64,000 nt of DNA from Candidatus Poribacteria bacterium (GTDB lineage Bacteria > Poribacteria > WGA-4E > B28-G17). Position 1 is the stretch's first letter; every line of letters begins with the position of its first letter. Shown one piece after another: positions 2-54,202 of the stretch. The stretch covers positions 9,985 to 73,984 of the forward strand of contig JAGGXZ010000036.1 in NCBI GenBank assembly GCA_021162805.1. The letters run 5' to 3'. The notes beneath the pieces are model-generated. The model was not told the origin of the DNA and made no database searches. It was given only the letters and a program-made list of their open reading frames with translations. The translations under genes were made by a program, and so were the position numbers.

Positions 2-166
2 AACTTCCTCGGCAGTCAATTGCTCGTTGCCGTTGATCCTTTCGTCAGCTCCATATTGAGCTCTGGGGATTATAGAAAGTTCTCGATCCTGATGGAGGAC
101 GATGAAAACGTGGAGAGACTGTTGCAGGCCATAGAACGGCTGAGCGGGAGGGGGAACAAGGATGGA
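2..166 (+). CDS. 3' end (C-terminal ~54 aa) of an upstream gene running off the window; unknown function
   Basis: Open frame from window edge to TGA at ~164-166 (…RKFSILMEDDENVERLLQAIERLSGRGNKDG*); overlaps ATG of next gene by 4 nt (ATGA-type coupling). Confidence 0.3.
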
Positions 167-1949
167 TGAAATGAGATCTATCCTCGCTACCGATTGCGGG
201 AGCACAACTACAAAGGCGATCCTGATAGAGAAGAGGGGTGATGAGTATCGGCTGATCGTACGAGGTGAAGCACCCACCACGGTCGAGGCGCCGGTGGAGG
301 ACGTCACCAAGGGCGTGATCAACGCCATCGGTGAGGTGGAGGAGCTTACGGGCAGAAAACTCCTGCGCGATGGCCGGCTGATTAAGCCTCAAACCGATGA
401 GAAGGGTATAGACATATACATCTCAACGAGCTCGGCTGGCGGCGGACTGCAGATGATGGTGGCGGGGGTCGTAAGAAACATGACGGCCGAAAGCGCCGAG
501 AGGGCCGCTTTAGGAGCTGGCGCCATCGTCATGGATGTGATCGCATCCAACGATGGAAGAAAACCGCATGAGAAGATAGATCGAATAAGGAGACTCAGGC
601 CGGATATGATCCTCCTTTCAGGAGGTGTTGATGGGGGAACCGTATCACATGTCGTGGAGCTTGCTGAAATAATCGCCGCAGCAAATCCCAGACCTCGTCT
701 CGGTATAGGATATCAGCTCCCCCTCATCTACGCGGGGAACAGGGATGCCCGCGATCAGATCAGAAAGACCCTCCACGGTAAGGTGGCCCTGGAGATCGTG
801 GACAACATTCGCCCGACCATGGAGCGTGAAAATCTCATGCCGGCAAGGCTTAAGATCCAGGAGCTTTTCCTCGAACACGTCATGGCTCATGCTCCGGGCT
901 ACGATAAACTCATCTCCTGGACGGACGCCCCCATTATGCCCACCCCGGCGGCCGTGGGATATATCATCCAGACAATAGCTCGTCGCCGTGGGATACAGGT
1001 TGTGGGGGTGGACATCGGAGGTGCAACCACAGATGTTTTCTCGGTTTTCCAGGGGACGTTTAACCGCACCGTCAGCGCGAACCTCGGTATGAGCTACAGC
1101 GTCTCCAACGTCCTCGCCGAGGCTGGCGTGGAGAACGTGATGCGATGGGTGCCTTTCCGGATGGATGAGGGAGATCTCCGAAACAGGATCAAGAACAAGA
1201 TGATCCGTCCCACCACCATACCTCAGACGTTGGAGGAGCTGATGGTGGAACATGCCCTCGCCCGTGAGGCGCTGAGGTTGGCCTTCGAGCAGCATAGGAA
1301 ACTCGCCGTCGGACTAAAGGGAGTTCACCAGGAGAGGACGATCTCCGACGCCTTCGCACAGACCGAGACGGGCCAGACGTTGGTGGATATGATGGGCCTG
1401 GACCTCATCGTGGGAAGCGGCGGTGTGCTCTCACATGCTCCCCGTAGGAGCCAGGCGGCGATGATGCTGATCGACGCATTTCAGCCGGAGGGCGTAACCC
1501 ATCTGGCCGTGGATAGCATCTTTATGATGCCCCAGCTCGGGGTTTTAGCGCAGGTGAATGAAGAGGCAGCTCTGCAGGTCTTCGAGAGAGAGTGTCTCAT
1601 ACACCTGGGGACCTGCATCGCCCCCGTCGGCCAGGGGGAGGAGGGCAGACCATGCCTGACCATAAAAGCATGGCTGCCGGAGGGTGAGATAGAGGAGGAG
1701 ATACCGTTCGGTCAGATCAGACTCCTACCTCTCGGCGTCGGCCAAAAGGCGCGGGTATACCTCAAGCCGCGGAGGAGGTTCGACGTCGGAGCGGGGAGGG
1801 GAAATGAGATGGAGATCGAGGTCGAAGGCGGAGTCGTCGGCCTTATACTGGATACCAGAGGACGCCCGCTCGATCTGAACATGAACACGCCGAACAGGGT
1901 GGACAGGATCACCGAATGGATGAAAGCCTTAAACGCATATCCGATGTAG
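162..1949 (+). CDS. MutL/GlmL-family (glutamate-mutase-accessory-like) ASKHA-fold ATPase with two actin-like ATPase lobes
   Basis: 595-aa ORF; N-terminal ATDCGSTTTKAIL and second VVGVDIGGATTDVFSV phosphate-binding motifs typical of actin/hexokinase-fold MutL (PF13941-like) / reactivase-like proteins; family assigned from memory. Confidence 0.55.
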   Translation: MDEMRSILATDCGSTTTKAILIEKRGDEYRLIVRGEAPTTVEAPVEDVTKGVINAIGEVEELTGRKLLRDGRLIKPQTDEKGIDIYISTSSAGGGLQMMVAGVVRNMTAESAERAALGAGAIVMDVIASNDGRKPHEKIDRIRRLRPDMILLSGGVDGGTVSHVVELAEIIAAANPRPRLGIGYQLPLIYAGNRDARDQIRKTLHGKVALEIVDNIRPTMERENLMPARLKIQELFLEHVMAHAPGYDKLISWTDAPIMPTPAAVGYIIQTIARRRGIQVVGVDIGGATTDVFSVFQGTFNRTVSANLGMSYSVSNVLAEAGVENVMRWVPFRMDEGDLRNRIKNKMIRPTTIPQTLEELMVEHALAREALRLAFEQHRKLAVGLKGVHQERTISDAFAQTETGQTLVDMMGLDLIVGSGGVLSHAPRRSQAAMMLIDAFQPEGVTHLAVDSIFMMPQLGVLAQVNEEAALQVFERECLIHLGTCIAPVGQGEEGRPCLTIKAWLPEGEIEEEIPFGQIRLLPLGVGQKARVYLKPRRRFDVGAGRGNEMEIEVEGGVVGLILDTRGRPLDLNMNTPNRVDRITEWMKALNAYPM

Positions 1950-1958
1950 GGGGATAAA

Positions 1959-3077
1959 ATGGCCCATGCCTATACGCCCGGGCTCAAGATAACCGATTCG
2001 ACGCTTATAAGGAAGATCCGCAGGTTGCCCCTTGAAGGGACGGTGTTGGTCGAGGCAGGGCAGAAGGTTAGGGCCGAGGACCCTGTTGCAAGGACTGAGC
2101 TGCCCGGCGATGTGGAGATGATCAACGTGGCAAATACACTCAGCATTCAGCCTGAGGACATCCGCAGATATATGCTCAAGTCGGAGGGTGATCCGGTCGA
2201 GGAGGGAGAGATCATAGCCCAGACGAAGGGCCTATTCGGGCTTTTTAAATCACAATGTAGATCCAAAGCCTTGGGAACCATAGAGAGCATCTCGGAAGTC
2301 ACCGGACAGGTTCTCATCCGCAAACCCTCGGTGCCGCTGGAGATAAAGGCATATGTAGACGGCGTGGTGAGCGAGGTCATGCCGAGGGAAGGCGCCGTCA
2401 TAGAGTGTAAGGGAGCATTGATACAGGGGATATTCGGCGTGGGCGGTGAAAGGATAGCACCTTTAAAGCTGCTCGTCGATTCCCCCTCTGAACCGCTCAC
2501 GGCTGAATCGATCGACCGAAGCTGTGCCGATAGGATAATCGTCGGAGGATCGATCGTCACCGCGGAGGCCATACGAAAGGCCGAGGAAATCGGTGTGATT
2601 GGAATAATCGTCGGAGGCATAAATGACGAGGATCTGCGCCGTTTCCTGGGATACGAGATCGGCGTGGCGATAACGGGATCGGAGGATATAGATCTGACGC
2701 TCATCATCACGGAGGGATTCGGGGAGATAGCCATGTCAGATAGAGCCTTCGGTCTCCTTAAAGAGCTCGATGGGATGAAGGCCTCCATAAACGGGGCAAC
2801 CCAGATCCGAGCAGGTGTGCTCAGGCCGGAGGTGATAGTGCCCCTGGAAAAGATAAGGGCGGAAGAAGGAGAACTTGAGCCGAGACTGGAGATCGGATCG
2901 AAGATCAGGGTGATAAGGGAACCCTATTTCGGCAGGATCGGCGTGGTGAGAGCACTTCCCCCGGAATTGAAAAGGATCGAAACGGAATCCGTAGTTCGAG
3001 TTTTAGAGCTTGAATTGGAGGACGGATCGAGGATCACCCTGCCAAGGGCGAACGTCGAGATAATCGAGGAGAGATGA
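1959..3077 (+). CDS. conserved hypothetical protein, co-operonic partner of the MutL-like ATPase
   Basis: 372-aa ORF 10 nt after preceding stop; Gly-rich IIVGG..GIIVGG segments; no recognisable catalytic motif. Confidence 0.4.
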   Translation: MAHAYTPGLKITDSTLIRKIRRLPLEGTVLVEAGQKVRAEDPVARTELPGDVEMINVANTLSIQPEDIRRYMLKSEGDPVEEGEIIAQTKGLFGLFKSQCRSKALGTIESISEVTGQVLIRKPSVPLEIKAYVDGVVSEVMPREGAVIECKGALIQGIFGVGGERIAPLKLLVDSPSEPLTAESIDRSCADRIIVGGSIVTAEAIRKAEEIGVIGIIVGGINDEDLRRFLGYEIGVAITGSEDIDLTLIITEGFGEIAMSDRAFGLLKELDGMKASINGATQIRAGVLRPEVIVPLEKIRAEEGELEPRLEIGSKIRVIREPYFGRIGVVRALPPELKRIETESVVRVLELELEDGSRITLPRANVEIIEER

Positions 3078-5629: not shown

Positions 5630-6025
5630 ATGGCGAGGATCATCAAGGAGATAGAGATCCAGGGACAACCGGCGTTAGCCCTGTTTGATACCGGAGCGAT
5701 CTACTCCTATGTCCGCTCGATCTTGGCCCGGGATGCCCCGGGGATAAAGGTCCCCTCCCCCCCGCGCGTGGTTCTGGGGGGAAGGGTTATTGAGATCAGG
5801 GAGCTCCGGTTGGTCAAGGGAAAGATCGAAGGACTGCCCTTCGTCGCCGAGGTGGTTCCTGTGGATGAACTGGGTCGGGCTGACGGTAAGGAACTGGATG
5901 CGATCATCGGAGCTAGAACGATGGAACAGTGGGAGATCAAGCTGGACCCTCGAACGGAATCGCTGGATCTAGAAGGGCTACGGCGCAGAGAGTTCACCGA
6001 GTTCCCTACATCACCACTGGTCTGA
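5630..6025 (+). CDS. retropepsin-like (clan AA) aspartic peptidase
   Basis: 131 aa with LFDTGAIYSYV (D-T-G-A catalytic signature) near N-terminus; size typical of bacterial/archaeal single-lobe retropepsin homologues. Confidence 0.55.
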   Translation: MARIIKEIEIQGQPALALFDTGAIYSYVRSILARDAPGIKVPSPPRVVLGGRVIEIRELRLVKGKIEGLPFVAEVVPVDELGRADGKELDAIIGARTMEQWEIKLDPRTESLDLEGLRRREFTEFPTSPLV

Positions 6026-7139
6026 TCTGCCCGCCGATGATGTTCTTGCCCAAAACCCTGAAGTTGATGACCTCCTTGGAGCCGGGGTCCATCTGAAGAA
6101 TGAACTTGATCGTGGAGGAATCCTCCTTCTCATACCTATGTGAGCACTCCTTCATCTCCCACTCGTCGTTCAACCCCACATATATCTCCAGTTTGATCTT
6201 CTCCTCACGATGGTTTTGAGCCGTGATCCTGAACTTCTCCTCGATGTCGCAGAGCGCTATTCTCCTCTGATCTGCCGTCCGCCTGATGTTCGTCCTTCGC
6301 CTATCTAGGAGCTCCTTTTTAACCTCGACCTCCTTCGTCCCGCCGAGTCTGATCCTCACCTCATCGCTGATAGGCGTCCTATGTAGGATGTCCTCGCTGA
6401 GGAACACAAATCCATCCCCCTCGGCTTTATAGACGTGAATCTGGCCGGAGGGGAGGATAGAACCGCCAAGGCCATGGGCCTCATCGTTCTTAAAGATATA
6501 GTAGACTGAAGTTGTGGCGGATTTCCTCGGATCGAAGACGTAAAGTTTCTCCACAGAGACATTCTCAACCTTAAACAGCTCCACGGATCTGGATTCCCTT
6601 CCTTTAATCGTGAGCTTGATGGGAGGTCTAAATGGGAATTCGACCTGGACGTTCTGAAACTCCTCAGGCGTCGTGTTCACCACCTTTGCCCTGCATATTA
6701 ACCTCCCCTTCTCATCGTTTTCATCGAGGATGAGGGTATAGCTAAACTCCGGTCTGATTCCTGAGGCAAGGTATGAGATGTAAACCGGCACCTCCATAGC
6801 CTCAGAGCTCATCACGTGCCAGATCAGGCTATTTGTCGATCCCGGCCGGATCGATATCGACTCGATCTCCACCCTCCCCTTTTGAGGCGTTGGGATGACA
6901 TGAACCGATTGGAGATCTATGTCGAGGTTGGCCCAACTGAACTCGACCAGGTTTTCGCCTTTCTCCAAGGTGATGTTTCTCTGCTCTTGAATCAAAGCTT
7001 TCGCCGACGTGATGGACATGAACCTGATCCTCACCCTTTCCCTGGGCGGGAGGGTTATAAGCTCTATCCTCGATAACCCCACCTCGGCGATGCATCCCAG
7101 CAGGAGAGCTGCCGCTATAAATCCGATCAAAGCCCTCAT
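6006..7139 (-). CDS. secreted DUF4139-like protein (TIGR02231 / MuiA-like family), paralog 1
   Basis: 377 aa, N-terminal signal peptide (MRALIGFIAAALLLGCIAEVG); shares VYVFDPRKS, YYIFKNDEAHGLG, KIRLGGTKEVEV blocks with the upstream paralog; family assigned from memory. Confidence 0.5.
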   Translation of the reverse strand: MRALIGFIAAALLLGCIAEVGLSRIELITLPPRERVRIRFMSITSAKALIQEQRNITLEKGENLVEFSWANLDIDLQSVHVIPTPQKGRVEIESISIRPGSTNSLIWHVMSSEAMEVPVYISYLASGIRPEFSYTLILDENDEKGRLICRAKVVNTTPEEFQNVQVEFPFRPPIKLTIKGRESRSVELFKVENVSVEKLYVFDPRKSATTSVYYIFKNDEAHGLGGSILPSGQIHVYKAEGDGFVFLSEDILHRTPISDEVRIRLGGTKEVEVKKELLDRRRTNIRRTADQRRIALCDIEEKFRITAQNHREEKIKLEIYVGLNDEWEMKECSHRYEKEDSSTIKFILQMDPGSKEVINFRVLGKNIIGGQIRPVVM

Positions 7140-8458
7140 CTTCTCACACCTCCCTCCGGCTTGATAACGACCGTGTATTTGATGATCTCCTCCGCTCCGG
7201 GCGGGAGGGTAAGCTTGAAAAGTATCGTCTGAGCGTCCTTTCGCTCATAATCGTGGCTTTTGGAGGTGATCTCCCACTCGCCCCTGAACCTCTCGTAAAC
7301 TTCAACCTTGGCGGGGATCTCCCTGTGATTACGCACCTTTATCTGATATTCCTCCTCAGTGTCATATCCCGCCACCCGGTTGTTCTTATCGAACCTGAAG
7401 TTGATCTTGGCGAAGTTCATCCGTTTTCTTTCGACCGTGATCTCGCCCTGGGAGTTGAGGGTGAGCTTCACATCGCCGCTGACCGGCGTGAAATCGATCC
7501 TCGATTCACCTATCGGTATGATCTGATCTTTCTCCCGCCCGTAAACTATCACCCTCCCCGGCGGGATGGGAGCGGAGCCGAGGTTGTGCTCTTTGTCGTT
7601 TTTGAATCTGTATTGTTTAACGACCGATTCGCCGTATTTCGAGGGATCGAAGACATATACCACATCTATCGGCACCTCTTCGGCGGAGAGCCACATCAAC
7701 CTTTTGCCCCACTCGTTTTTGAGATCAGTTCGTCTTTCGACCGAGAGCAGATAATGCTCTGAGACCATCCCGGCCTCACCGGCCTGTCTCATGTTAGCCA
7801 ACGCCTCCGTCGTCACGAATTTCCGAGCGGCCGCTTCGATTACAGGTACAGGTGCTCTCAACGCTCCTCTGCCCGCTTTCCTCATCTCCTTTCGCATCCT
7901 GTCCATCTCCTCCGCCTTCGCCGCGTATCTCTCCCTTACCACCCTGTTGATCTCACCCGCCACGAGCTTGAGCGACACCCCTTTGAAATCCTCGCCGCTC
8001 TTGTTGGAGATCTCGACATATCCCTCTAGTGAAAGCTTGGTCTCATCCTCCGACGAGATGACAGTGTAGTCCACATCCCAGTCCATTCCACCGATGAAGT
8101 ATGTGATCTTCAGCGGTTTTCTGCCCCCTTCCTCCGTTTTGATCTTCCAGACGATCATGTTCGGCTCCTCAAAGGAGGAGATAGCCGTCTGGATCGAGAC
8201 GTCCGGGATCTGGGGAAGCAGTCTTATGGAGGATGGATCGATCCTGGTGTCAGCCCATCCGAATTGAAGCCTGTTTTCGCCCTTCCTCAGCGTGATCAAC
8301 CTGCTCTCCTCGACATAGGCTATGTCTATCCCCTTATAGATCGTGACTTTCACGGACTTGCGTCCTGGGATTGTGGAGAGCTGGACCTCTCCCCACGCGT
8401 TGAAAGAAAGCGTTAAAAAGGCCCACATTCCCAGTGTGACCCAGATTAACCTCAACAT
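7136..8458 (-). CDS. secreted DUF4140/DUF4139-like protein (TIGR02231 / MuiA-like family), paralog 2
   Basis: ORF track extends to 8650 but the extension is translation of palindromic repeats; plausible start is internal Met (MLRLIWVTLGMWAFLTLSFNAWG signal peptide) at ~8458; stop overlaps next gene by 4 nt. Confidence 0.5.
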   Translation of the reverse strand: MLRLIWVTLGMWAFLTLSFNAWGEVQLSTIPGRKSVKVTIYKGIDIAYVEESRLITLRKGENRLQFGWADTRIDPSSIRLLPQIPDVSIQTAISSFEEPNMIVWKIKTEEGGRKPLKITYFIGGMDWDVDYTVISSEDETKLSLEGYVEISNKSGEDFKGVSLKLVAGEINRVVRERYAAKAEEMDRMRKEMRKAGRGALRAPVPVIEAAARKFVTTEALANMRQAGEAGMVSEHYLLSVERRTDLKNEWGKRLMWLSAEEVPIDVVYVFDPSKYGESVVKQYRFKNDKEHNLGSAPIPPGRVIVYGREKDQIIPIGESRIDFTPVSGDVKLTLNSQGEITVERKRMNFAKINFRFDKNNRVAGYDTEEEYQIKVRNHREIPAKVEVYERFRGEWEITSKSHDYERKDAQTILFKLTLPPGAEEIIKYTVVIKPEGGVRR

Positions 8459-8499
8459 ACATCCCCTCCGATACGCTGGATTCGCCCATATTATCGTTG

Positions 8500-8575
8500 A
8501 GTGTAACGGAAATCCGATCCGTTGCGTTGTAACGTTCGCTGCGTGATTGCGTTTACTGCGTTGTGCGTTACGCGA
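8500..8575. repeat. GTAACG/CGTTAC-rich degenerate palindromic repeat block in divergent intergenic region
   Basis: GTGTAACGGAAATCCGATCCGTTGCGTTGTAACGTTCGCTGCGTGATTGCGTTTACTGCGTTGTGCGTTACGCG; contains AACGGA..TCCGTT inverted repeat and reiterated TGCGTT(N)ACG units; related block at 20832-20863. Confidence 0.6.
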
Positions 8576-8593
8576 TGAACGTATCTCCTTGTT

Positions 8594-8630
8594 GGATCGA
8601 TAACCGCTACACTCAAGGGAAATTTGAGCG
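8594..8630. repeat. conserved ~35-nt intergenic palindromic element, copy A (GGATCGATAACCGCTACACTCAAGGGAAATTTGAGCG)
   Basis: Near-identical to copy at 20891-20924 (32/34 nt), partial copies at ~30442-30465 and ~31883-31903 (minus); inverted repeat GCT(ACA)CTCAA-N7-TTGAGCG. Confidence 0.7.
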
Positions 8631-8705
8631 TGTTGAACTACTCCGACCACCTAGGAGATTATACCATAATTTACCGGGTGATGTCGGCTTCTCACGTTAA
8701 TCCTC

Positions 8706-15354: not shown

Positions 15355-15591
15355 CTACTCAGCTTTCAGGGCAACAGGTACTCGGGCGATAAGGCGTATA
15401 TCGTCCTGAGGCACTTGCTGCCCTTCCTCCGATAACACTTCCAGATGTAAGGTGATAGCCTCCCTCACGTTCTGCAGTGCTTCTTCAATCGTCTCACCTT
15501 GTGAGAAACATCCCGGCAGCGCCGGTACCTCCACCCAATATCCTCCCTCTTCAGCATCGTGAATGATAACGGTATAATCCATTGACTCCAC
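15355..15591 (-). CDS. hicB: HicB-family antitoxin (UPF0150)
   Basis: 78 aa; YTVIIHDAEEGGYWVEVPALPGCFSQGETIEEALQNVREAI is the canonical HicB RNase-H-like N-domain; GTG/ATG start. Confidence 0.8.
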   Translation of the reverse strand: MESMDYTVIIHDAEEGGYWVEVPALPGCFSQGETIEEALQNVREAITLHLEVLSEEGQQVPQDDIRLIARVPVALKAE

Positions 15592-15592
15592 C

Positions 15593-15783
15593 TCATAGTA
15601 GATTGATGAATTCTTCCTCAGTTAATCCTGCTTTACGAATAGCTGCCTTGAGCAAACCAACTTTAATTTCCCCTGTAACAGGAATAGTGATCAATTGTCC
15701 ATTTGGCATTTTGATGTTAACATGACTGCCTTTCCCTTGCGAACTTCACCCCCCCGCTCGTTTAAAGGCTCTGACAGCTTCAT
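15593..15783 (-). pseudogene. hicA: hicA toxin gene with a -1 frameshift (GGG->GG) early in the ORF
   Basis: Minus-strand ATG AAG CTG TCA GAG CCT TTA AAC GAG CGG GGG GGT GAA GTT CGC AAG GGA AAG G|CA… gives MKLSEPLNERGGEVRKGK then stops after 29 codons; shifting one base restores GKGSHVNIKMPNGQLITIPVTGEIKVGLLKAAIRKAGLTEEEFINLL* (HicA GSH…ILKQAGL architecture), ending 1 nt before hicB start; 191 nt, not a multiple of 3. Confidence 0.65.
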
Positions 15784-15830
15784 ATCCTTTTATACCTCGT
15801 AATAAACGTCCCTGCATCTTTATCATTCAC

Positions 15831-46672: not shown

Positions 46673-49600
46673 TCAGCGTTGTATTATCATGCGTCTGATA
46701 GCGCTGTATTGCGGCGTGACCAACTGATAGAAGTAGATCCCGCTGGCCACCCTCTCACCCAGTTCATTCCTGCCATCCCATCGTATCTGATGTCTACCGG
46801 AGGTGAGAGGACCTAAGTTTAGCCTTCTGATCAACTTGCCTGTAACGTCATATATTCTGATTTCCGCCCGGCAATCTTCGGCGAGATGAAACGGTATCCA
46901 TGTCTCGGGGTTAAACGGATTGGGGGAATTCTGATAGAGTTCCCACCTTTTAGTCCTTGTCATATCCTTTGGCGCTCCCATCGGCTGATGTTCTCCTTCC
47001 GTCCCGATCTGTTTGGCCAGAATTACCAGATCCAATACGTTTATTTCACCATCTCCGTTCAGATCGTAATCCAGGTTTTCCCCTTTCTCGCCGAAATGCT
47101 TCGCCAATACCACCACATCGAATACGTTCACCTCTCCATCTCCGTTCAGATCTGCATTCACAACGGTTTCCTTGACGGTTAGATTCAAGAAGGCATGGGC
47201 TTTGGCCTCTTTCGAATCGATTGCCGTAAAGGTGATCGTGTAGAGGCCAACCTGATCCTCAGTTGGAGTCCATTTGAAGATATGATCCTTGCCGAATGAA
47301 GCTCCTTTGGGAAGCGGATGTACCTTTACCCTTACCTCATCTCCATCCGGATCGCTCACATCCACCGTCAGGTTGATTTCCTCTCCTACCTTCACCTCCA
47401 TCTTCTCCGGCATATCGCCGAACTGAGGGGGGCAGTTAACATCAGCCACGGAGATATTGATTTTTCTCTGAGAGGAATTTCCCTCAGAGTCGGTGGCTAC
47501 AAATGTGACAGTATACTCTCCGGACTGGTTATAAGAAGGCGTCCAGTCGAAAATCCCGTCGGTGAAAGTCGCCCCCTGAGGCAATCCCACTGCTGAAAGC
47601 GATACATCCTCGCCGTCAGGTTCGGTTGCGCCTATCTGAAGCTGTATCCGCTCGCCCTCCGAGATAAGCAAAGTCGCTCCATCGGGCTGGCTCATCTGGA
47701 TGACCGGAGGGCGATCTACGTTTTCGACTACGATCCTCACCTCGGCCTCATCCTTCTCCTTGCCGTCGGATGCTATGAATTTCACCTTATATTCCCCCGC
47801 CTGATCGTAATCAGGCGTCCAGATCATCGTGTTACCCTGAAATTCCGCCCCTTTCGGCAGGTTTTCAGCCTTATATGAGATTGGATCGCCATCGGGATCG
47901 GAGGCTTCAACAGCGAGGCTGAGAGTCTGGCCTTCCTTCACGGATTGATCCGGGATCGCCTTGATCTTCGGCGGATGATTGACATCGGCCACAACCACCT
48001 TGAAGTTCGTCTCCGCCGAGCCACCTTTGGAATCGGTGACGGTAACCGTTAGATCGTAAGTGCCTGAATCGTGAGGCCCTGGCGTCCAAGTGATCTCATT
48101 TTTCTGTCGATCGATCTGCATTCCTTCGAGCTGTGGCTGGATTGATATCTTCAGCGGATCTCCGTCCGGATCGGATGCTTTCAGATCCACCTTGAGCTCC
48201 TCGCCCTCTTTTATCTGAATGTCTTGTATCTTGCCTATCTGAGGTGGTCGATTCACGTCCTGCACGGTGAGATCAAGTTTCGTTCGGGATTTATTTCCCA
48301 TAGAGTCGGATGCCGTAAGGATCACAGTGTAGTGACCCGCCTGAGCATATGAAGGTCTCCATCTGAAAAGCGCCGGTTTAGTCGGGTTGGCCCCGGCGGA
48401 GAAATCGGCTCCGTCGGGGAGCTCTGATGCCGAATAGTGAACAGGATCTCCGTCTGGGTCGGAAGCTTTGATCTCCACCTGGATGAGCTCACCTTCTTTC
48501 AGTGAGATCGGCTGGATAGGATCGAAGACGGGGGGAGCGTTGATATATTCATTGAACTTCACCCTCACACCTGGAATATCCGGTGACGAGGCGGTCACAA
48601 CGAGATCAGTCATCCCGTTTTCGATCTCACCGAGCTTCAGATTGACCGCCGCCTTTCCATCGCTATCCGTCAACACATCGGCTAACTTCACCCCGACCAT
48701 ATCGCCGGAACTCAGTTCGAGCAGCAACTCACCGTTTCCTTTTTCGATGGAGAAGGTCACGATTCTATCTGGAACAGGGTTGTTATAGGCATCGAGAAGA
48801 AGCACGGTAAGGGGCTCGATAAGGATCGATCCTGAGACCCCTTTCTGTTCATCACCTTTCAGCTTATAGATATATTTGGGTTTATCCGCCTCAGCGCTGA
48901 AACGGAAGTTGACCGGGGATGCGTCATAACCGATAGCTGTAGCTGAGACCACATAGTTGTCCTCGCCCGATGTGGTTCCAAGTTTCAACGAGGCTGAGGT
49001 ATATCCTGACGGATCAGTTATAGCAGTGAATCCCTTTCGGCCGTTTTCAAACGACGCGTTACCTTTCTCGACCTTGAAATTGATCTCGGCTTGCGGGATC
49101 GGGTTTCCCATCTTGTCCGTCAATCTAACCGTGATCGGCCTGGCTAGAGGCTGACCGACTGTTCCGATCTGCATATCACCTGAGATCTTGATAAGCTTTG
49201 CCTCTCCGGCAGGCAGCCCGTTGGCGGTGAACTCAACCGATTCGCCAGGGTTATCCGTTAATTTAGCGATAACCTTATGTTTGCCTTCCCCTGCCTCGGG
49301 GCCGAGGATGAAGACAACGGAAGCGATACCTCTATCATCTGTCTTAACGGTTAAGCTCTTACGTGGTGAATCGCTCGAGCCTACCTCCTTTACCCCTCCG
49401 TTTCCCTCCGTCACTTCAAATGTAACCTGGGCTTCAGGAACGGGGTTTGAGAACTGATCATATATTCTCACCGATAGGGGGATATCCAACTCCTCGCCGA
49501 CCACTCCGCTCTGGCCGTTACCGTCCAACATCTCGATTCTCTTCGGATCGCCTGGTTGGCCAGAGATCTTGAAGTAGACCGGCGGGGCACTGAAGTCGAC

Positions 49601-52600
49601 AGGTGAGACCAAGATGACGTTTATATCTTTGCCGGCTTTGGTTCCGAGCTTCAGATATGCCTTCGCCTCGCCGGAGCTATTTGATCTGACCACGACCGAG
49701 CTTGTAAGTCCTCCCCCCGGCATCTTCGTCAGTGCGCCGTTGCCCTGGAAGATGGAGAACCTCACCGTCGCGCCCGGCGTGGGATTTCCGTGTTCATCCT
49801 TAACGATTACCTTCAACGGCGTGGAGGATATCTTGCCCACAACTCCTGATTCCGGCCCGCTTTCGAGCTTAATCAGGCTCGGCTGTGAAGATGTGGAGGT
49901 CGCCTTGAATGAGACGTTCCCATCTACATCCTGTCCCGTCACCGTCACCTCATTCAAAACCCCTGCCTCATCACCAAGTATCAATCTGGCCGAAGCCTCA
50001 CCGTTTTCATCTGTCTCCACTGTCAGCTTTTCCACCGGAGGCGATAGATCATCCGGTATGAGCTTACCTCCTCCGGATGAGACGGTAAAGGTCACAGGCA
50101 GACCCGCTATCGGGTTTCCATATCTATCCAGAACCCTTACGACCAAAGGCGAACTGAGAGCATACCCCGCCTCTCCTATCTGCCCATCCCCGGAGACGAT
50201 CTCCAATTTTGAGGGTGCGTCGGGCAGGATATGCGCTTTGAAGGTAACGGATTGATCTTGGAGAGATAGGGCCGTAGCTGTGACCGATATCTCATGTGAC
50301 GCGTTCTTCCCCAATTTCAGATAGGCGGCTGCTCTGCCGTTCGAATCTGTAGGCAATTTCAACCTGTCGGTTCCCTCGCCTTCGATCAGGGGATTGGTGA
50401 GCAGTCCAGCGTCTCCTGATGTGACCTTGAAGAATATGGCCTCATCCGGAACAGGGTTGCCGTAGCCGTCCACCAACATCGCCACCAATGGTTTTGGGAG
50501 AACTCTGTCGGGCAATCCGCTCTGATTATCGCCTGAGACGATCGCTATTGCCTCGACATCACCTGGGATCGCTGAGGCGGTGAACGTCACGGCGCTATCC
50601 GGAATGCCGCTAATCCAGGCCTTCACGACGTTATTGTTCGATCCTGTGACGAGCCCTAATTTGAAGGTAACCGAGGCTTTGCCCTGATCGTCCGCTTTCA
50701 CCTCGATTCTTTTGTTTGTCCCGTTTAACCAGCCGCCTCCTGTGATCACCTCGAAAGTGACCGGTGTCCCAGGGGCTATGTTGCCGTAGAGGTCTCTGGT
50801 GGACACCACGAGCGGCTGAGGCAGCTGAGATCCCACCTTTCCCGTTTGTCCATCCCCTGAGATCTTGACCAATTTGGCGCCACCGGTGGATCTTGCAGAT
50901 TCAGCGAATACGACCTTCTGATTTGTCCCCGTGATCGTTGCCTCGACCATATTTTTACCTTCACCTGTTCCGGGTCCAAGCGTCAGGATCGCCTTGGCCT
51001 GACCGTTTTCATCTGTCGAGATATCCACCGAATCGGACGATGAGATTGTTCCGCCGACATCGCTCAAGCTTCCCCCTCCTGATATCACCTTGAAGGTAAC
51101 GGGAACATCCTTCACAGGGTTTCCGTATCGATCGGTGACGAGAACGACCAGGGGTTGAGGCAACGGCGTGTTGATGAATCCGGTCTGCTCATCCCCTGAA
51201 AGTATCTTCAGCTTCTCAGGGTCTCCGGGCGTGGCGGAGGCGGTGAATTCCACGCTGACATCATTCCTGCTTTGAATCCTAGCTCTGATTCTCTCAACGT
51301 CTTTACCCGCCTTAGTCCCGAGCTGATAATATGTGGAGGCTTTGCCCTCCCCATTTGTGATAGCTTCTGATGTCTCCGGTCTGCCCGTTCCCTGAACGGT
51401 CGAGAATATCACCGTGACGTTGGGCACGGGATTACCATATTGATCTGAGACCTTCACTACCAGCGGCAGCGGCAGTCTGGCTGTGACGGTCCCACTTTGC
51501 CCGTCACCAGACACGATCTCAATCTTCATCGGTGAATCGGAGGTGACCGTGGCCTTGAAGGTCACGCTTATGCTTGAGTCGGCGTTGGCGGATGCCTCGA
51601 CGATTTCTATCCCTTTACCAGTTTGATTTCCAAGCGTGAAGACGGTTCCGGCCTTTCCAGTGTCGTCAGTTTCCTTCACGTTAACTATCTCCCCATCAGG
51701 GAAGTGACCGCCTGAAAGAGCGGTGAACCGTATCTCCGCATTTGGGATCGGATTGTCGAACTCATCGAGCAATTGAACCACAAGCGGCTGTGGCAGAGTC
51801 GTTCCAACCTTGCCTTTTTGATTATCTCCGGAGACGATCTCGATCTTAGAGGGTTGAGCTGGATGCGCCGAGGCGGTGAAGGTAACTGAATCGCCGTTGA
51901 TCAGCGATGCGCGAACCCTGTTGTTGTTCTCCCCCGCTTTCTTGCCCAAGGTTAAGGTCACAGATGCCTCACCCGATTCATCGGTCATGATAGAGACAGA
52001 GCTCTTGCCGTCTATCGATCCGCCACCTGATATGACCTGAAACTTCACAGCGGCATTAGGGGTCGGGTTACCATATCTGTCATATGCGACTACCACAAAT
52101 GGTTCCGAAAGAGGTTGATCTACCGTTCCCACCTGTCCGTTGCCGCTCTTTATAGATATAGAACGGGCTGAGCCGGCCGAAGCCGAGGCCGTGAATGTTA
52201 TCGGCGATCCTGCTAGGCCTGATCCCTCCGCCGTCACGATGTTGTTGTCCACACCGACCGTGCTACCGAGTATCAAGGTGATCTTTGCCTGCCCACTGGA
52301 ATCGGTGTTGACCGTCACGGAGGTGCCGTTTGAAAACCTTCCATCGCCGGTTGTGACGGTGAAATGGATAGGAAAGCCGGGGACAGGGTTACCGTATGAG
52401 TCCTTAACGGCAACCACAAAGGGCTCGGGCAGGGGCTCCCCGGCTCGTCCTATCTGGCCATCTCCTGAAACCATCTCCATGCTTTGCGCCTGTCCCGGGA
52501 TCGCCGTCGCCGTAAAGTTAACCGGAGTGACCGAACCATTCGTGAGTTTAGCCTCTATAACTACCTTCCCGGCCTGAGTTCCCATGGTCGGAGTGACGCT

Positions 52601-54202
52601 CGCTCTTCCGCTGGCGTCCGTTATGACATCTGTCCAGCTATTACCGCCATCGAAACTAGCTTGGCCTGATTTAACCTCAAACCTGATCGATACATTAGCG
52701 GCGGGGTTTCCAGATAAATCCCTCGCCGCCACCACCAACGGTTTCGGGAAGCTCTCACCTACCGGCACCTTCTGTCCGTTACCCGATACGATCACCAGCT
52801 TTTCCGCTTTTGCTGAGACGATCACCGTTGCGTCGAACGTAGTAAGGGTGAGGGAACCGGAGGGATTTTTCACCGTCGTCACCCTACCTGAGGAGGAATC
52901 CATCTCGAAAGAGACATGCGTTTCAGAGGTAGGTTTGAGCGCTGTAAAGCTCATCGTAGCTATCACTCCGTTGCCGGAGCGCGTTCCGCCTGCCCGTCTC
53001 TCAATATACACAAGGTGATTATCATCCTGGAGCACGTTGGTGTTGACAAATCCGCCCAGAAAAGCCCCCTTCTGAAAAGGCTGAACGTCCGGCAGGGTTG
53101 GAAATTGATCCTGCACCGTTAGATACCTCGGATCATAGGTCAGATAGAGTTTCACCTCGCTCACGCCCTCTCCGGCCGTATCCACCCGTATCTGGAGCGA
53201 GAACGGCTCGCCAACCCTCACCCGTGCCGTCGGCTCGCCGGTATTCGGATCGACGATGGATAAGGTGAGCTGAGAGGGGGCCGATTGTGCTGAGGCATAG
53301 AAGGTTACAGGCGGGACATCGGGGTAATCCGGAAGGCTCGCCCGGACGGAATTATTCAGGCTGCCAGATGTAGGGCCGAGTGTCAGGATGACCTGAGCCT
53401 TGCCCGATGAATCGGTCGAGACGACCTTATATGATGATCCGCCGATGTTACCTCCGCCTGAAAGCACGTCAAACCTGACCTGGACATCTGAGACGGGGTT
53501 CCCCTCTGCGTCGAGAACCTGAACGACGAATGGATTTTGCAGAGCTTTGCCGACCGTCCCACTCTGATTATCACCTGAGATCTTAACCAACTGCTCCGGC
53601 GTCGAACCTCCACCATTACCTCCCCCACCTATTGTTATCGAGAGGTTGGTCACCTGAGGAGCGATCACACCATTATCGACCACACTTACGCCCGTTTCCC
53701 TGTGCGATGATGAATCGAAATCGAACGTGATCTGGGCCGATCCTGAAGAGGCTAAAGCCTTAAGGGTAAACCTTGCTATCTCACCCGATCCCGATTTGGG
53801 GGAGAGAGAGATCTCTGAATAATCCATATGATTGTCCACGAGGCGATTGATAACCGGCTGCGATCCTAGAAAACCGGATGACTCAAAGGGTTGTATTCCA
53901 GGCGTTCCAGGGCCTTTATCCTGAACCTCAAAGATCGAGCTGTCGAATGTCAGGAATATCTGATACCCGTTGACCGAAGCGCCATGGGTATCGATTACGA
54001 GTGAGATATCGAAGCTCTGACCCTTGCTTACCTGTATGGACGATTGAGAAGTGGTAGGGTCAATTAGTTTAAGCTCAACCTCGCCCCATGCCCAAGTAAC
54101 GGTGATGAGCAGCCATATGATCGATACCGTTAAGAAAAACTTCCCTTTCATCTTCCTCGCCCCTGCCCTCGTGAATTTCAACCACTGAGACATGGCGTTC
54201 AT
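46673..54202 (-). CDS. giant (2509 aa) cell-surface adhesin-like protein: signal peptide, ~20 Big_1/invasin-type Ig repeats, ~6 cadherin-like (PIG) domains, dockerin-type double Ca-binding repeat, T9SS-type C-terminal sorting domain
   Basis: Repeats of the form …SGD[GN]Q.G.VG..LP.PLVV.V.D..GNPV…V.F.V..GGG…; PIG domains (…DPDGDP..YSA..LP.GA.F…); DLNGDGEVNVFDVVVLAKHFGE…DLNGDGEINVLDLVILAKQIG; C-terminus …NSPNPFNPETWIPFHLAEDCRAEIRIYDVTGKLIRRLNLG…RWDGRNELGERVASGIYFYQL. Confidence 0.85.
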   Translation of the reverse strand: MNAMSQWLKFTRAGARKMKGKFFLTVSIIWLLITVTWAWGEVELKLIDPTTSQSSIQVSKGQSFDISLVIDTHGASVNGYQIFLTFDSSIFEVQDKGPGTPGIQPFESSGFLGSQPVINRLVDNHMDYSEISLSPKSGSGEIARFTLKALASSGSAQITFDFDSSSHRETGVSVVDNGVIAPQVTNLSITIGGGGNGGGSTPEQLVKISGDNQSGTVGKALQNPFVVQVLDAEGNPVSDVQVRFDVLSGGGNIGGSSYKVVSTDSSGKAQVILTLGPTSGSLNNSVRASLPDYPDVPPVTFYASAQSAPSQLTLSIVDPNTGEPTARVRVGEPFSLQIRVDTAGEGVSEVKLYLTYDPRYLTVQDQFPTLPDVQPFQKGAFLGGFVNTNVLQDDNHLVYIERRAGGTRSGNGVIATMSFTALKPTSETHVSFEMDSSSGRVTTVKNPSGSLTLTTFDATVIVSAKAEKLVIVSGNGQKVPVGESFPKPLVVAARDLSGNPAANVSIRFEVKSGQASFDGGNSWTDVITDASGRASVTPTMGTQAGKVVIEAKLTNGSVTPVNFTATAIPGQAQSMEMVSGDGQIGRAGEPLPEPFVVAVKDSYGNPVPGFPIHFTVTTGDGRFSNGTSVTVNTDSSGQAKITLILGSTVGVDNNIVTAEGSGLAGSPITFTASASAGSARSISIKSGNGQVGTVDQPLSEPFVVVAYDRYGNPTPNAAVKFQVISGGGSIDGKSSVSIMTDESGEASVTLTLGKKAGENNNRVRASLINGDSVTFTASAHPAQPSKIEIVSGDNQKGKVGTTLPQPLVVQLLDEFDNPIPNAEIRFTALSGGHFPDGEIVNVKETDDTGKAGTVFTLGNQTGKGIEIVEASANADSSISVTFKATVTSDSPMKIEIVSGDGQSGTVTARLPLPLVVKVSDQYGNPVPNVTVIFSTVQGTGRPETSEAITNGEGKASTYYQLGTKAGKDVERIRARIQSRNDVSVEFTASATPGDPEKLKILSGDEQTGFINTPLPQPLVVLVTDRYGNPVKDVPVTFKVISGGGSLSDVGGTISSSDSVDISTDENGQAKAILTLGPGTGEGKNMVEATITGTNQKVVFAESARSTGGAKLVKISGDGQTGKVGSQLPQPLVVSTRDLYGNIAPGTPVTFEVITGGGWLNGTNKRIEVKADDQGKASVTFKLGLVTGSNNNVVKAWISGIPDSAVTFTASAIPGDVEAIAIVSGDNQSGLPDRVLPKPLVAMLVDGYGNPVPDEAIFFKVTSGDAGLLTNPLIEGEGTDRLKLPTDSNGRAAAYLKLGKNASHEISVTATALSLQDQSVTFKAHILPDAPSKLEIVSGDGQIGEAGYALSSPLVVRVLDRYGNPIAGLPVTFTVSSGGGKLIPDDLSPPVEKLTVETDENGEASARLILGDEAGVLNEVTVTGQDVDGNVSFKATSTSSQPSLIKLESGPESGVVGKISSTPLKVIVKDEHGNPTPGATVRFSIFQGNGALTKMPGGGLTSSVVVRSNSSGEAKAYLKLGTKAGKDINVILVSPVDFSAPPVYFKISGQPGDPKRIEMLDGNGQSGVVGEELDIPLSVRIYDQFSNPVPEAQVTFEVTEGNGGVKEVGSSDSPRKSLTVKTDDRGIASVVFILGPEAGEGKHKVIAKLTDNPGESVEFTANGLPAGEAKLIKISGDMQIGTVGQPLARPITVRLTDKMGNPIPQAEINFKVEKGNASFENGRKGFTAITDPSGYTSASLKLGTTSGEDNYVVSATAIGYDASPVNFRFSAEADKPKYIYKLKGDEQKGVSGSILIEPLTVLLLDAYNNPVPDRIVTFSIEKGNGELLLELSSGDMVGVKLADVLTDSDGKAAVNLKLGEIENGMTDLVVTASSPDIPGVRVKFNEYINAPPVFDPIQPISLKEGELIQVEIKASDPDGDPVHYSASELPDGADFSAGANPTKPALFRWRPSYAQAGHYTVILTASDSMGNKSRTKLDLTVQDVNRPPQIGKIQDIQIKEGEELKVDLKASDPDGDPLKISIQPQLEGMQIDRQKNEITWTPGPHDSGTYDLTVTVTDSKGGSAETNFKVVVADVNHPPKIKAIPDQSVKEGQTLSLAVEASDPDGDPISYKAENLPKGAEFQGNTMIWTPDYDQAGEYKVKFIASDGKEKDEAEVRIVVENVDRPPVIQMSQPDGATLLISEGERIQLQIGATEPDGEDVSLSAVGLPQGATFTDGIFDWTPSYNQSGEYTVTFVATDSEGNSSQRKINISVADVNCPPQFGDMPEKMEVKVGEEINLTVDVSDPDGDEVRVKVHPLPKGASFGKDHIFKWTPTEDQVGLYTITFTAIDSKEAKAHAFLNLTVKETVVNADLNGDGEVNVFDVVVLAKHFGEKGENLDYDLNGDGEINVLDLVILAKQIGTEGEHQPMGAPKDMTRTKRWELYQNSPNPFNPETWIPFHLAEDCRAEIRIYDVTGKLIRRLNLGPLTSGRHQIRWDGRNELGERVASGIYFYQLVTPQYSAIRRMIIQR

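Follow-up and report, generated by a model that had tools for sequence, protein, structure and literature searches.

We examined two adjacent genes at the 5' end of a 64,000-nucleotide stretch of DNA (this whole stretch is hereafter called the window) from a Candidatus Poribacteria bacterium (GenBank assembly GCA_021162805.1, contig JAGGXZ010000036.1, positions 9,985 to 73,984 of the forward strand). The two genes encode an ASKHA (actin-fold) ATPase and a partner protein of 372 amino acids (aa), and they follow the 3' end of a gene for a small soluble protein that we call up129. We put the chances at about even that the pair and up129 form the soluble, ATP-hydrolysing part of a widespread, hitherto undescribed multi-subunit membrane system. 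An earlier analysis of the window (the original prediction) had suggested that the partner could define a new ATPase-driven system, and this part is supported by conservation across phyla, by ATPase-partner fusions in two lineages and by a recurrent operon. The two functions that it offered, a reactivase or a cytoskeletal/assembly ATPase, fared less well, as the genomic context points to a membrane complex instead.

Family and motifs of the ATPase

The ATPase is encoded by an open reading frame (ORF) of 595 codons at positions 162..1949 of the forward strand, as given in the ORF list. It matched PF13941 (MutL) with 435.5 bits (gathering threshold 27) over residues 7-478, covering the model from position 1 to 450 of 450. 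This match bears out the predicted assignment to the MutL/GlmL type. Both phosphate motifs were located, with DCGSTTTK spanning residues 11-18 and GVDIGGATTD spanning 282-291. A Pfam scan at E<=0.01 gave no match to the DDR and EutA families. The core motifs comprise phosphate-1 (DCGSTTTK), phosphate-2 (VDIGGATTD) and GSGGVLSHAP. As judged across 32 homologues, the invariant residues are D11, G13, S14, T15, T16 and K18 in phosphate-1, G286, G287, A288, T289 and T290 in phosphate-2, and G418, G420, G421, H425, A426 and P427 in the adenosine motif. D284 and D291 were substituted in the Bathyarchaeota copies only; the nucleotide motifs were otherwise invariant or nearly so, and the ATPase of a 'Thermococci' genome bin (L030) keeps the first aspartate of phosphate-2 (TDPGGATTD).

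With regard to the more specific models, the ATPase reached 239 bits for the GlmL equivalog NF040745 (cut-off 475), 219.4 bits for the GlmL-related ornithine degradation protein Or-4 (NF040744, cut-off 600) and 179.2 bits for the GlmL subfamily model TIGR01319 (cut-off 204.05). It is also longer than GlmL, as had been noticed from the sequence: positions 2-456 of the 459 in the GlmL model align to residues 8-477, and the 118 residues beyond are conserved. This extension (~115 aa) has no Pfam match and is absent from GlmL. It contains the invariant residues G517, P536, G543, G547, G556, G557, G560, D564, R566, G567, R568, P569, W586 and Y593, among them an invariant GG..G...D.RGRP motif, and is predicted to form a beta-rich domain followed by a terminal helix; the equivalent part of the fusion-protein model described below has seven strands and a helix, with a predicted local distance difference test score (pLDDT) of 84-95. 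Alignments and model scores taken together indicate that the 595-aa protein belongs to a distinct, longer subfamily of MutL/GlmL-like ASKHA ATPases. Its homologues in the databases are named 'hypothetical', 'glutamate mutase L' or 'methylaspartate mutase'.

Canonical MutL/GlmL is a chaperone of glutamate mutase and is encoded together with glmS and glmE (PMC4682846). The original prediction had found no B12 mutase near the pair, and had allowed that the gene cut off at the 5' end of the window might encode a B12-binding mutase subunit, in which case the operon would be an ordinary one. The exact ATPase protein is also present on a 76-kb JGI contig (L001), which supplies the flank upstream of the window. 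The gene order 5' of the ATPase in this contig is gap, pgk, tpiA, secG, a 140-aa protein with two transmembrane (TM) segments, hereafter the 2-TM protein, and up129, and a B12 mutase in the upstream flank was consequently rejected. For up129 no Pfam or NCBIfam family was found above cut-off (search to E<=10) and no TM segment was predicted; the 2-TM protein likewise gave no Pfam or NCBIfam family. B12-binding and mutase E genes were absent from the Pfam annotation of ~10 kb upstream and of ~1-52 kb of the window, and from the six longest ORFs of 54-64 kb, which were scanned separately (ORFs of <250 aa in 52-64 kb were left out). Nor did the Pfam annotation of the contig contain ornithine aminomutase genes. 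The only B12-binding domains among neighbours belonged to a MetH-like methionine synthase family (D9), at four loci. Since the ATPase falls below the GlmL, Or-4 and TIGR01319 cut-offs and has an extra C-terminal domain, and since no mutase gene was found in the contig, gene content and scores indicate that the locus is not a glutamate-mutase operon and that the pair is not a B12-mutase accessory.

Conservation and linkage of the two genes

The ATPase and the partner each gave at least 8000 homologue matches. The partner was represented by 2682 sequences at 50% clustering, 572 of them below 1e-30. Matches in genomes came from Poribacteria, WOR-3, Hydrothermota, Stahlbacteria, Zixibacteria, Latescibacteria, Planctomycetota, Armatimonadota and Bathyarchaeota; no cultured-organism or named homologue was among the matches, and all hits with a database name were from metagenome-assembled genomes. 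Compared with the window proteins, the ATPase had an identity of 67-77% in bacteria of other phyla and of 58-61% in archaea, and the partner one of 53-63% across bacterial phyla and Bathyarchaeota. The triose-phosphate isomerase of the same loci showed 55% identity to WOR-3, so that the two proteins are at least as conserved as this enzyme. As judged by these identities across phyla and domains, together with the invariant nucleotide-binding motifs, both proteins are under strong purifying selection.

The ATPase adjoined the partner in a quarter of the genome loci seeded with the partner (20/80), and these covered five bacterial phyla, among them Planctomycetota, Latescibacteria, Zixibacteria and Armatimonadota, as well as Bathyarchaeota. 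At six loci (L072, L074, L075, L078, L083 and L131) one or two extra ORFs of 114-544 aa lie between the two genes. Moreover, the two proteins were found fused into one chain. In one fusion (P0271, 995 aa) the ATPase part was 62% identical and the partner part 46%. Its cluster of 12 members derives from several independent assemblies, so that an assembly artefact is excluded. The other (P0355, 1003 aa) is divergent, with 56% and 41% identity, respectively.

Poribacteria-like and WOR-3 genomes retain both genes in unlinked positions; in a circular 5.44-Mb genome 2.1 Mb separate the ATPase (1.02 Mb) from the partner (3.12 Mb). Adjacency, fusion and joint retention all speak for a common task of the two proteins. 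At L013 and ~15-25 further loci, mostly of WOR-3, the stand-alone partner is part of a conserved synteny block with the order topA, an AP_endonuc_2 TIM barrel, partner, a 277-aa outer-membrane beta-barrel-like protein, accA and DUF4388. The AP_endonuc_2 TIM barrel was rejected as a recurrent neighbour, since the proteins found 5' of the partner in WOR-3 and 5' of the ATPase in Poribacteria are not orthologous, and the ~277-aa proteins beside the split genes were rejected as members of the membrane cassette described below, being unrelated secreted or outer-membrane-type proteins.

A four-gene membrane cassette

Recurrent neighbour families were identified by clustering the ORFs of all fetched loci (about 170). 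The only recurrent neighbours of the pair were a membrane cassette, up129 and the 2-TM protein. In the full operon the 2-TM protein and up129 come first, followed by the ATPase and the partner and then by the cassette: DUF6754, a protein with ~6 TM segments, a TM-domain-TM protein and another with ~6 TM segments. This order is present in Latescibacteria, Planctomycetota, Bathyarchaeota and one 'Thermococci' genome bin. Homologues of up129 were directly 5' of the ATPase in L049, L057 and L086, and near it in L044, L063, L075, L078, L067, L076 and L082 as well as in 9 metagenome loci; the 2-TM protein and up129 together stood directly 5' of the ATPase in L001, L057, L078 and metagenome loci such as L087 and L089.

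The first cassette protein, DUF6754 (PF20539), consists of a TM segment, a ~200-aa domain and a second TM segment; part of the bacterial versions additionally have a signal peptide and an ecto-domain that is Fn3-like. The positive-inside rule predicts that the ~200-aa domain is cytoplasmic. The second protein (~215 aa) and the fourth (215-245 aa) each have roughly six TM segments, and the third (~280 aa) has the arrangement TM-domain-TM. No homology among the four families was found with hhalign; they have no NCBIfam model, and a profile search gave no solved structure for them and no solved relative of any component. One of the families (C10) was without even a weak Pfam signal. The PADLOC models of anti-phage defence matched none of the eight components of the operon.

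The four-gene cassette adjoins the pair in L030, L063, L067, L075, L076, L079 and L082, and partially in L057. In a marine lineage (L167 and L168) it lies directly 3' of an ATPase-partner fusion gene, and in Bathyarchaeota one pair is flanked by two cassettes. A reciprocal test, in which a metagenome scan was seeded with DUF6754, yielded 80 loci, of which 37 had at least 3.5 kb of upstream sequence. The other three cassette genes accompanied DUF6754 in 72, 65 and 57 of the 80 loci, and the four membrane genes are a near-invariant operon. The partner was located 100-315 nt upstream of DUF6754, preceded by the ATPase on the same strand, in 10 of the 37 loci. No other family recurred to a similar degree. 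Some loci contain two or three copies of the cassette and no more than one ATPase, a pattern typical of a shared energising module. At L125 (10-13128) and L153 (6299-16450) the cassette is present three times in tandem, and neither the ATPase nor the partner lies within 10 kb.

Other genes stand beside the module or the cassette at some loci. Wza-like Poly_export/SLBB genes precede the cassette in L109, L146 and L158, and Wzi genes follow it in L126 and L164. A link to polysaccharide export was not supported, with SLBB in only 3 of 148 flanking ORFs and no family enriched. In Bathyarchaeota (L067, L082 and L076) genes for class-III and class-I/II aminotransferases and a DUF483 protein lie beside the module, and in L167 and L168 a class-III aminotransferase and an aldehyde dehydrogenase are encoded 3' of the cassette. 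These neighbours are a possible hint of amino-acid metabolism, though not a general one.

Predicted fold of the partner

The fold of the partner had been called unknown in the original prediction. This no longer holds, as the AlphaFold model (42 homologues, pLDDT 86) resolves it into three domains of known fold. Domain 1 (~residues 10-170) is a barrel-sandwich hybrid resembling the N-terminal domains of NqrA and RnfC and BCCP. Domain 2 (~residues 180-295) is a swivelling beta/beta/alpha domain that resembles RraA, the mobile domains of PEP-utilising enzymes and the small subunit of aconitase X (fold matches 5hv1, 2wqd and 5woy). Domain 3 (~residues 310-370) is KOW/SH3-like and resembles Spt5, NusG, eL14, eL27, PsaE and NdhS. 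The invariant motifs of the protein are an N-terminal MAHAYTPGL and, within the swivel domain, TEGFG and NGATQIRAGV.RPE. The MAHAYTPGL peptide has low pLDDT in the model of the monomer, and we suspect that it belongs to an interface.

At the level of sequence families, Pfam and NCBIfam gave nothing for the partner beyond a match to Biotin_lipoyl (PF00364) that covers 24 residues (127-150) and stays below threshold (22.0 bits, cut-off 22.1). The modifiable lysine of PF00364 lies at the hairpin just before model position 43. The barrel of the partner has no conserved lysine at the cofactor position; the residues immediately preceding the matched stretch are R-E-P-P in at least 90% of the homologues. 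A phospho-acceptor histidine is not conserved in the swivel domain either, the sole invariant histidine of the protein being H3, outside this domain. A subfamily of ~435-475 aa (P0298, P0311, P0325, P0337, P0364, P0377, P0379, P0383 and P0388) has an N-terminal end ~75-80 residues longer and was matched in two or three stretches.

Proposed role of the pair in a membrane system

Taken as parts of one system, these proteins could work as follows. The 372-aa protein would be the obligate binding partner and adaptor of the ATPase, whose two lobes would close and open as ATP is bound and hydrolysed. The partner would pass this movement to the cytoplasmic domain of DUF6754, on which we infer that the soluble part docks, and thence to the membrane subunits. 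The work done would most plausibly be transport across the membrane, or possibly translocation or assembly, and one engine may serve several paralogous membrane cassettes. It is the combination of one conserved engine with several divergent cassettes, which occur together or apart, that leads us to favour transport, translocation or assembly. A further step, which we take only tentatively and which is clearly less probable than a membrane system as such, is that these proteins represent a new class of primary-active transporters or translocases, found in many uncultured bacterial phyla and in Bathyarchaeota. In such a class an ASKHA ATPase would take the place of the P-loop, P-type or rotary ATPases as the engine, and would serve interchangeable cassettes of four subunits (DUF6754 and three more families).

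Several observations weigh against a membrane system energised by the pair. In genomic terms, the partner stands alone among unrelated genes in most WOR-3, Poribacteria and Hydrothermota loci, as does the ATPase in Poribacteria-like loci, and ~73% of the cassette loci with enough flank have no ATPase-partner pair nearby. Searches of the 64-kb window and of the 10 kb preceding it with tblastn and profile hidden Markov models detected no cassette homologue, so the cassette of this organism must lie beyond the 64 kb or be absent. Clues to a substrate were also lacking: Rfam at gathering thresholds showed no riboswitch or other RNA clue at 14 loci, and the census of the 148 flanking ORFs brought up no enriched family that would reveal a function. 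As to the ATPase itself, the Bathyarchaeota copies (L067 8125-9957 and L076 8094-9962) read GVGLGGATTN, with both aspartates of phosphate-2 gone, and ATP hydrolysis may therefore be altered in them. The predicted model of the fusion protein is of only moderate quality in its ATPase part. Finally, we know of no ASKHA ATPase that energises a transporter.

Alternative explanations

Four other explanations were considered, and we rank them, with the likeliest first, as reactivase, hydantoinase/carboxylase-like enzyme, actin-like scaffold and true GlmL. Even the first of them is unlikely in our view. It states that the pair is a chaperone or reactivase in the manner of MutL/GlmL, DdrAB or EutA, acting on a soluble enzyme other than a B12 mutase that is encoded elsewhere, and that its adjacency to the cassette has no mechanistic meaning. 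The swivelling beta/beta/alpha domain of the partner is in keeping with such a role, and the same fold also occurs in the large subunit of diol dehydratase reactivase (DdrA). The pair is, moreover, unlinked from the cassette in many genomes, and the sole role assigned to PF13941 is the reactivation of glutamate mutase (PMC4682846). However, no candidate for a client enzyme recurs beside the pair in the about 170 loci, neither DDR nor EutA was matched, and the cassette directly follows the fusion gene.

More doubtful still is a relationship of function with the hydantoinases, oxoprolinases and acetone carboxylases, in which the ASKHA subunit would phosphorylate a small substrate and the partner would use its BCCP-like barrel and its swivel domain to carry the activated intermediate or to process it. 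Membrane subunits might be coupled to this reaction, as they are in the decarboxylase ion pumps. The nearest solved folds of the ATPase are subunits of the hydantoinase/acetone-carboxylase type, Hsp70, FtsA and PilM, all of them distant. The top Foldseek matches (5l9w_B, 5m45_B, 6yra_A and 9h03_A; E ~1e-6 to 3e-5) were subunits of acetophenone carboxylase, acetone carboxylase, caprolactamase and N-methylhydantoinase, but their TM-scores were 0.2-0.3, and comparison with PDB chains gave no sequence match to the ATPase, even with a profile search. The Pfam matches to Hydantoinase_A (PF01968, 23.4 bits, residues 262-308 only) and to Hydant_A_N are local and restricted to the phosphate-2 region. 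The barrel of the partner does resemble biotin carboxyl carrier domains, yet it has no conserved cofactor lysine, nor has the swivel domain an invariant histidine. The annotation of the 22 kb around the pair in the L001 contig contains no Hydantoinase_B-type subunit (PF02538), and no metabolic gene is consistently near.

We regard it as improbable that the ATPase is a polymer-forming, actin-like cytoskeletal or scaffold protein in the manner of MreB, FtsA or PilM, anchored by the partner and by bitopic proteins. It resembles FtsA and PilM no more closely than it does kinases and activases, and several copies of the cassette per engine fit a scaffold poorly. To our knowledge, no member of the MutL family polymerises. 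A review of the actin superfamily also places glutamate mutase among the enzymes and not among the polymers (PMC5597319). Least probable, and already contradicted by the data, is an ordinary GlmL/MutL accessory whose glutamate mutase (or ornithine/lysine aminomutase) genes lie elsewhere in the genome: membership in PF13941 and the mutase-like names of some homologues would agree with it, but, besides the sub-cut-off scores, the extra conserved domain and the lack of a mutase gene in the contig, the family is far more conserved and widespread than expected of a fermentation accessory, it has its own conserved partner, and B12-binding domains near the module are confined to the MetH-like family.

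Gene layout of the window

The features at the start of the window and in its upstream flank are listed in Table 1. The ATG of the ATPase at position 162 overlaps by 8 nt the up129 frame, which ends with TGA at 167-169. Downstream, the stop codon of the ATPase (TAG, 1947-1949) continues into a GGGGGA sequence, with the ATG of the partner four bases further on, and the spacer between the two genes is 9 nt. The overlap and this junction show that the genes are tightly coupled, in agreement with the translational coupling to both neighbours that the original prediction had proposed.

Table 1. Features at the 5' end of the window and in the flank upstream of it
Feature	Position	Strand or location	Basis
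up129 (soluble, 129 aa), 3'-terminal 55 codons	2..169	+	frame open from base 2
ASKHA (actin-fold) ATPase core, residues 1-478 of 595 aa, MutL/GlmL-type	162..1595	+	PF13941
ATPase C-terminal extension, residues ~479-595	1596..1949	+	conservation among homologues; no Pfam match
Shine-Dalgarno-like GGGGGA	1949..1954	+	read from sequence; shares last base of ATPase stop
Partner protein, 372 aa	1959..3077	+	ORF list
2-TM protein, 140 aa, TM hairpin	L001 9200-9622	outside window	full contig
up129 full gene, 129 aa	L001 9619-10008	tail inside window	full contig
Sugar-1-phosphate nucleotidyltransferase and phosphomannomutase-type mutase, single chain, 836 aa	3106..5616	+	

The 836-aa fusion protein encoded after the partner contains an NTP_transferase domain and a left-handed beta-helix, followed by complete phosphoglucomutase/phosphomannomutase domains I-III, so that two consecutive steps of sugar-nucleotide synthesis reside in one protein. 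Its best NCBIfam matches were mannose-1-phosphate guanylyltransferase and archaeal GlmM, both under cut-off, and with the guanylyltransferase match at this level synthesis of a GDP-sugar is no more than plausible. The position of the pair upstream of GDP-sugar synthesis, pointed out in the original prediction, is real in the window, but this adjacency is found only in the near-identical contigs L001-L005 and is not conserved, and a functional link was rejected on these grounds.

Further downstream, a 131-aa ORF at 5630..6025 (+), co-directional with the operon, gave a match to retropepsin-like Asp_protease_2 of 23.4 bits (cut-off 24.3). At 6006..8650 (-) two neighbouring genes encode proteins of 377 aa and 504 aa, the latter being 440 aa long in the gene call of L001. 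The longer is annotated as PF13598 (DUF4139) in the contig and the other is without family; to the eye, the two translations share several similar blocks, and the genes may be paralogues. A HicA toxin and HicB antitoxin are encoded at ~15355..15784 (-) (L171 3672-4101), between two DUF4159 genes. The region 46673..54202 (-) encodes a giant protein of 2509 aa, a probable surface adhesin built from immunoglobulin-like repeats (Big_1, He_PIG and Big_9).

Significance and comparison with known systems

The ATPase, the partner and DUF6754 are each represented by thousands of sequence clusters across bacterial phyla and at least one archaeal lineage, with a conservation comparable to that of core housekeeping enzymes, and databases routinely give the ATPase a wrong name, 'glutamate mutase L' or 'methylaspartate mutase'. 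In the literature library that was searched, nothing was found on this subfamily of PF13941, on TIGR01319, on DUF6754 or on any other component, and a characterised homologue or a solved structure was found for none of the components. If it is true that the pair energises the cassette, this would be the first case of an actin-fold ATPase driving a membrane machine, and several large families of 'hypothetical' membrane proteins would gain a function. Even if the membrane engine is the wrong reading, the fusion and operon data define a testable complex of eight proteins.

In our view this system, with its putative function, belongs to no kind described so far; its parts are already in databases as 'hypothetical' proteins. 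Closest by family is MutL/GlmL (PF13941, NF040745, TIGR01319), with which the ATPase shares the two-lobe ASKHA core and the phosphate motifs over residues 7-478. GlmL, however, is ~460 aa long, whereas the ATPase has 595 aa with a conserved C-terminal domain and reaches half of the equivalog cut-off; glmS and glmE do not flank it here, and it has a dedicated partner and a link to membrane proteins. Hydantoinase A, oxoprolinase, the acetone and acetophenone carboxylases and caprolactamase have the nearest folds and are likewise large ASKHA proteins with a second subunit. They differ by their low TM-scores (0.2-0.3), by the lack of a Hydantoinase_B in the contig annotation and by the lack of a PDB sequence match.

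The reactivases DdrA/DdrB (PduG/PduH) and EutA also combine an ASKHA ATPase with a partner, and a swivelling beta/beta/alpha fold occurs in their system too. Here the domain belongs to the partner instead of being an insertion in the ATPase, Pfam gave no match to DDR or EutA, and no dehydratase or ammonia-lyase genes lie nearby. In PilM-PilN-PilO, GspL and FtsA-FtsN an ASKHA protein sits on bitopic proteins. PilM, GspL and FtsA are scaffolds with a weak ATPase role or none, whereas the motifs of the ATPase described here are invariant in bacteria, and the membrane families are unrelated. The energy-coupling factor transporters and the ATP-binding cassette importers with a shared ATPase have no sequence or fold relation to the system, their engine being of the P-loop type where ours has the actin fold, and transport is here a proposed role. 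In organisation, they are nevertheless alike: one cytoplasmic engine, several divergent cassettes, and an engine encoded either with a cassette or alone.

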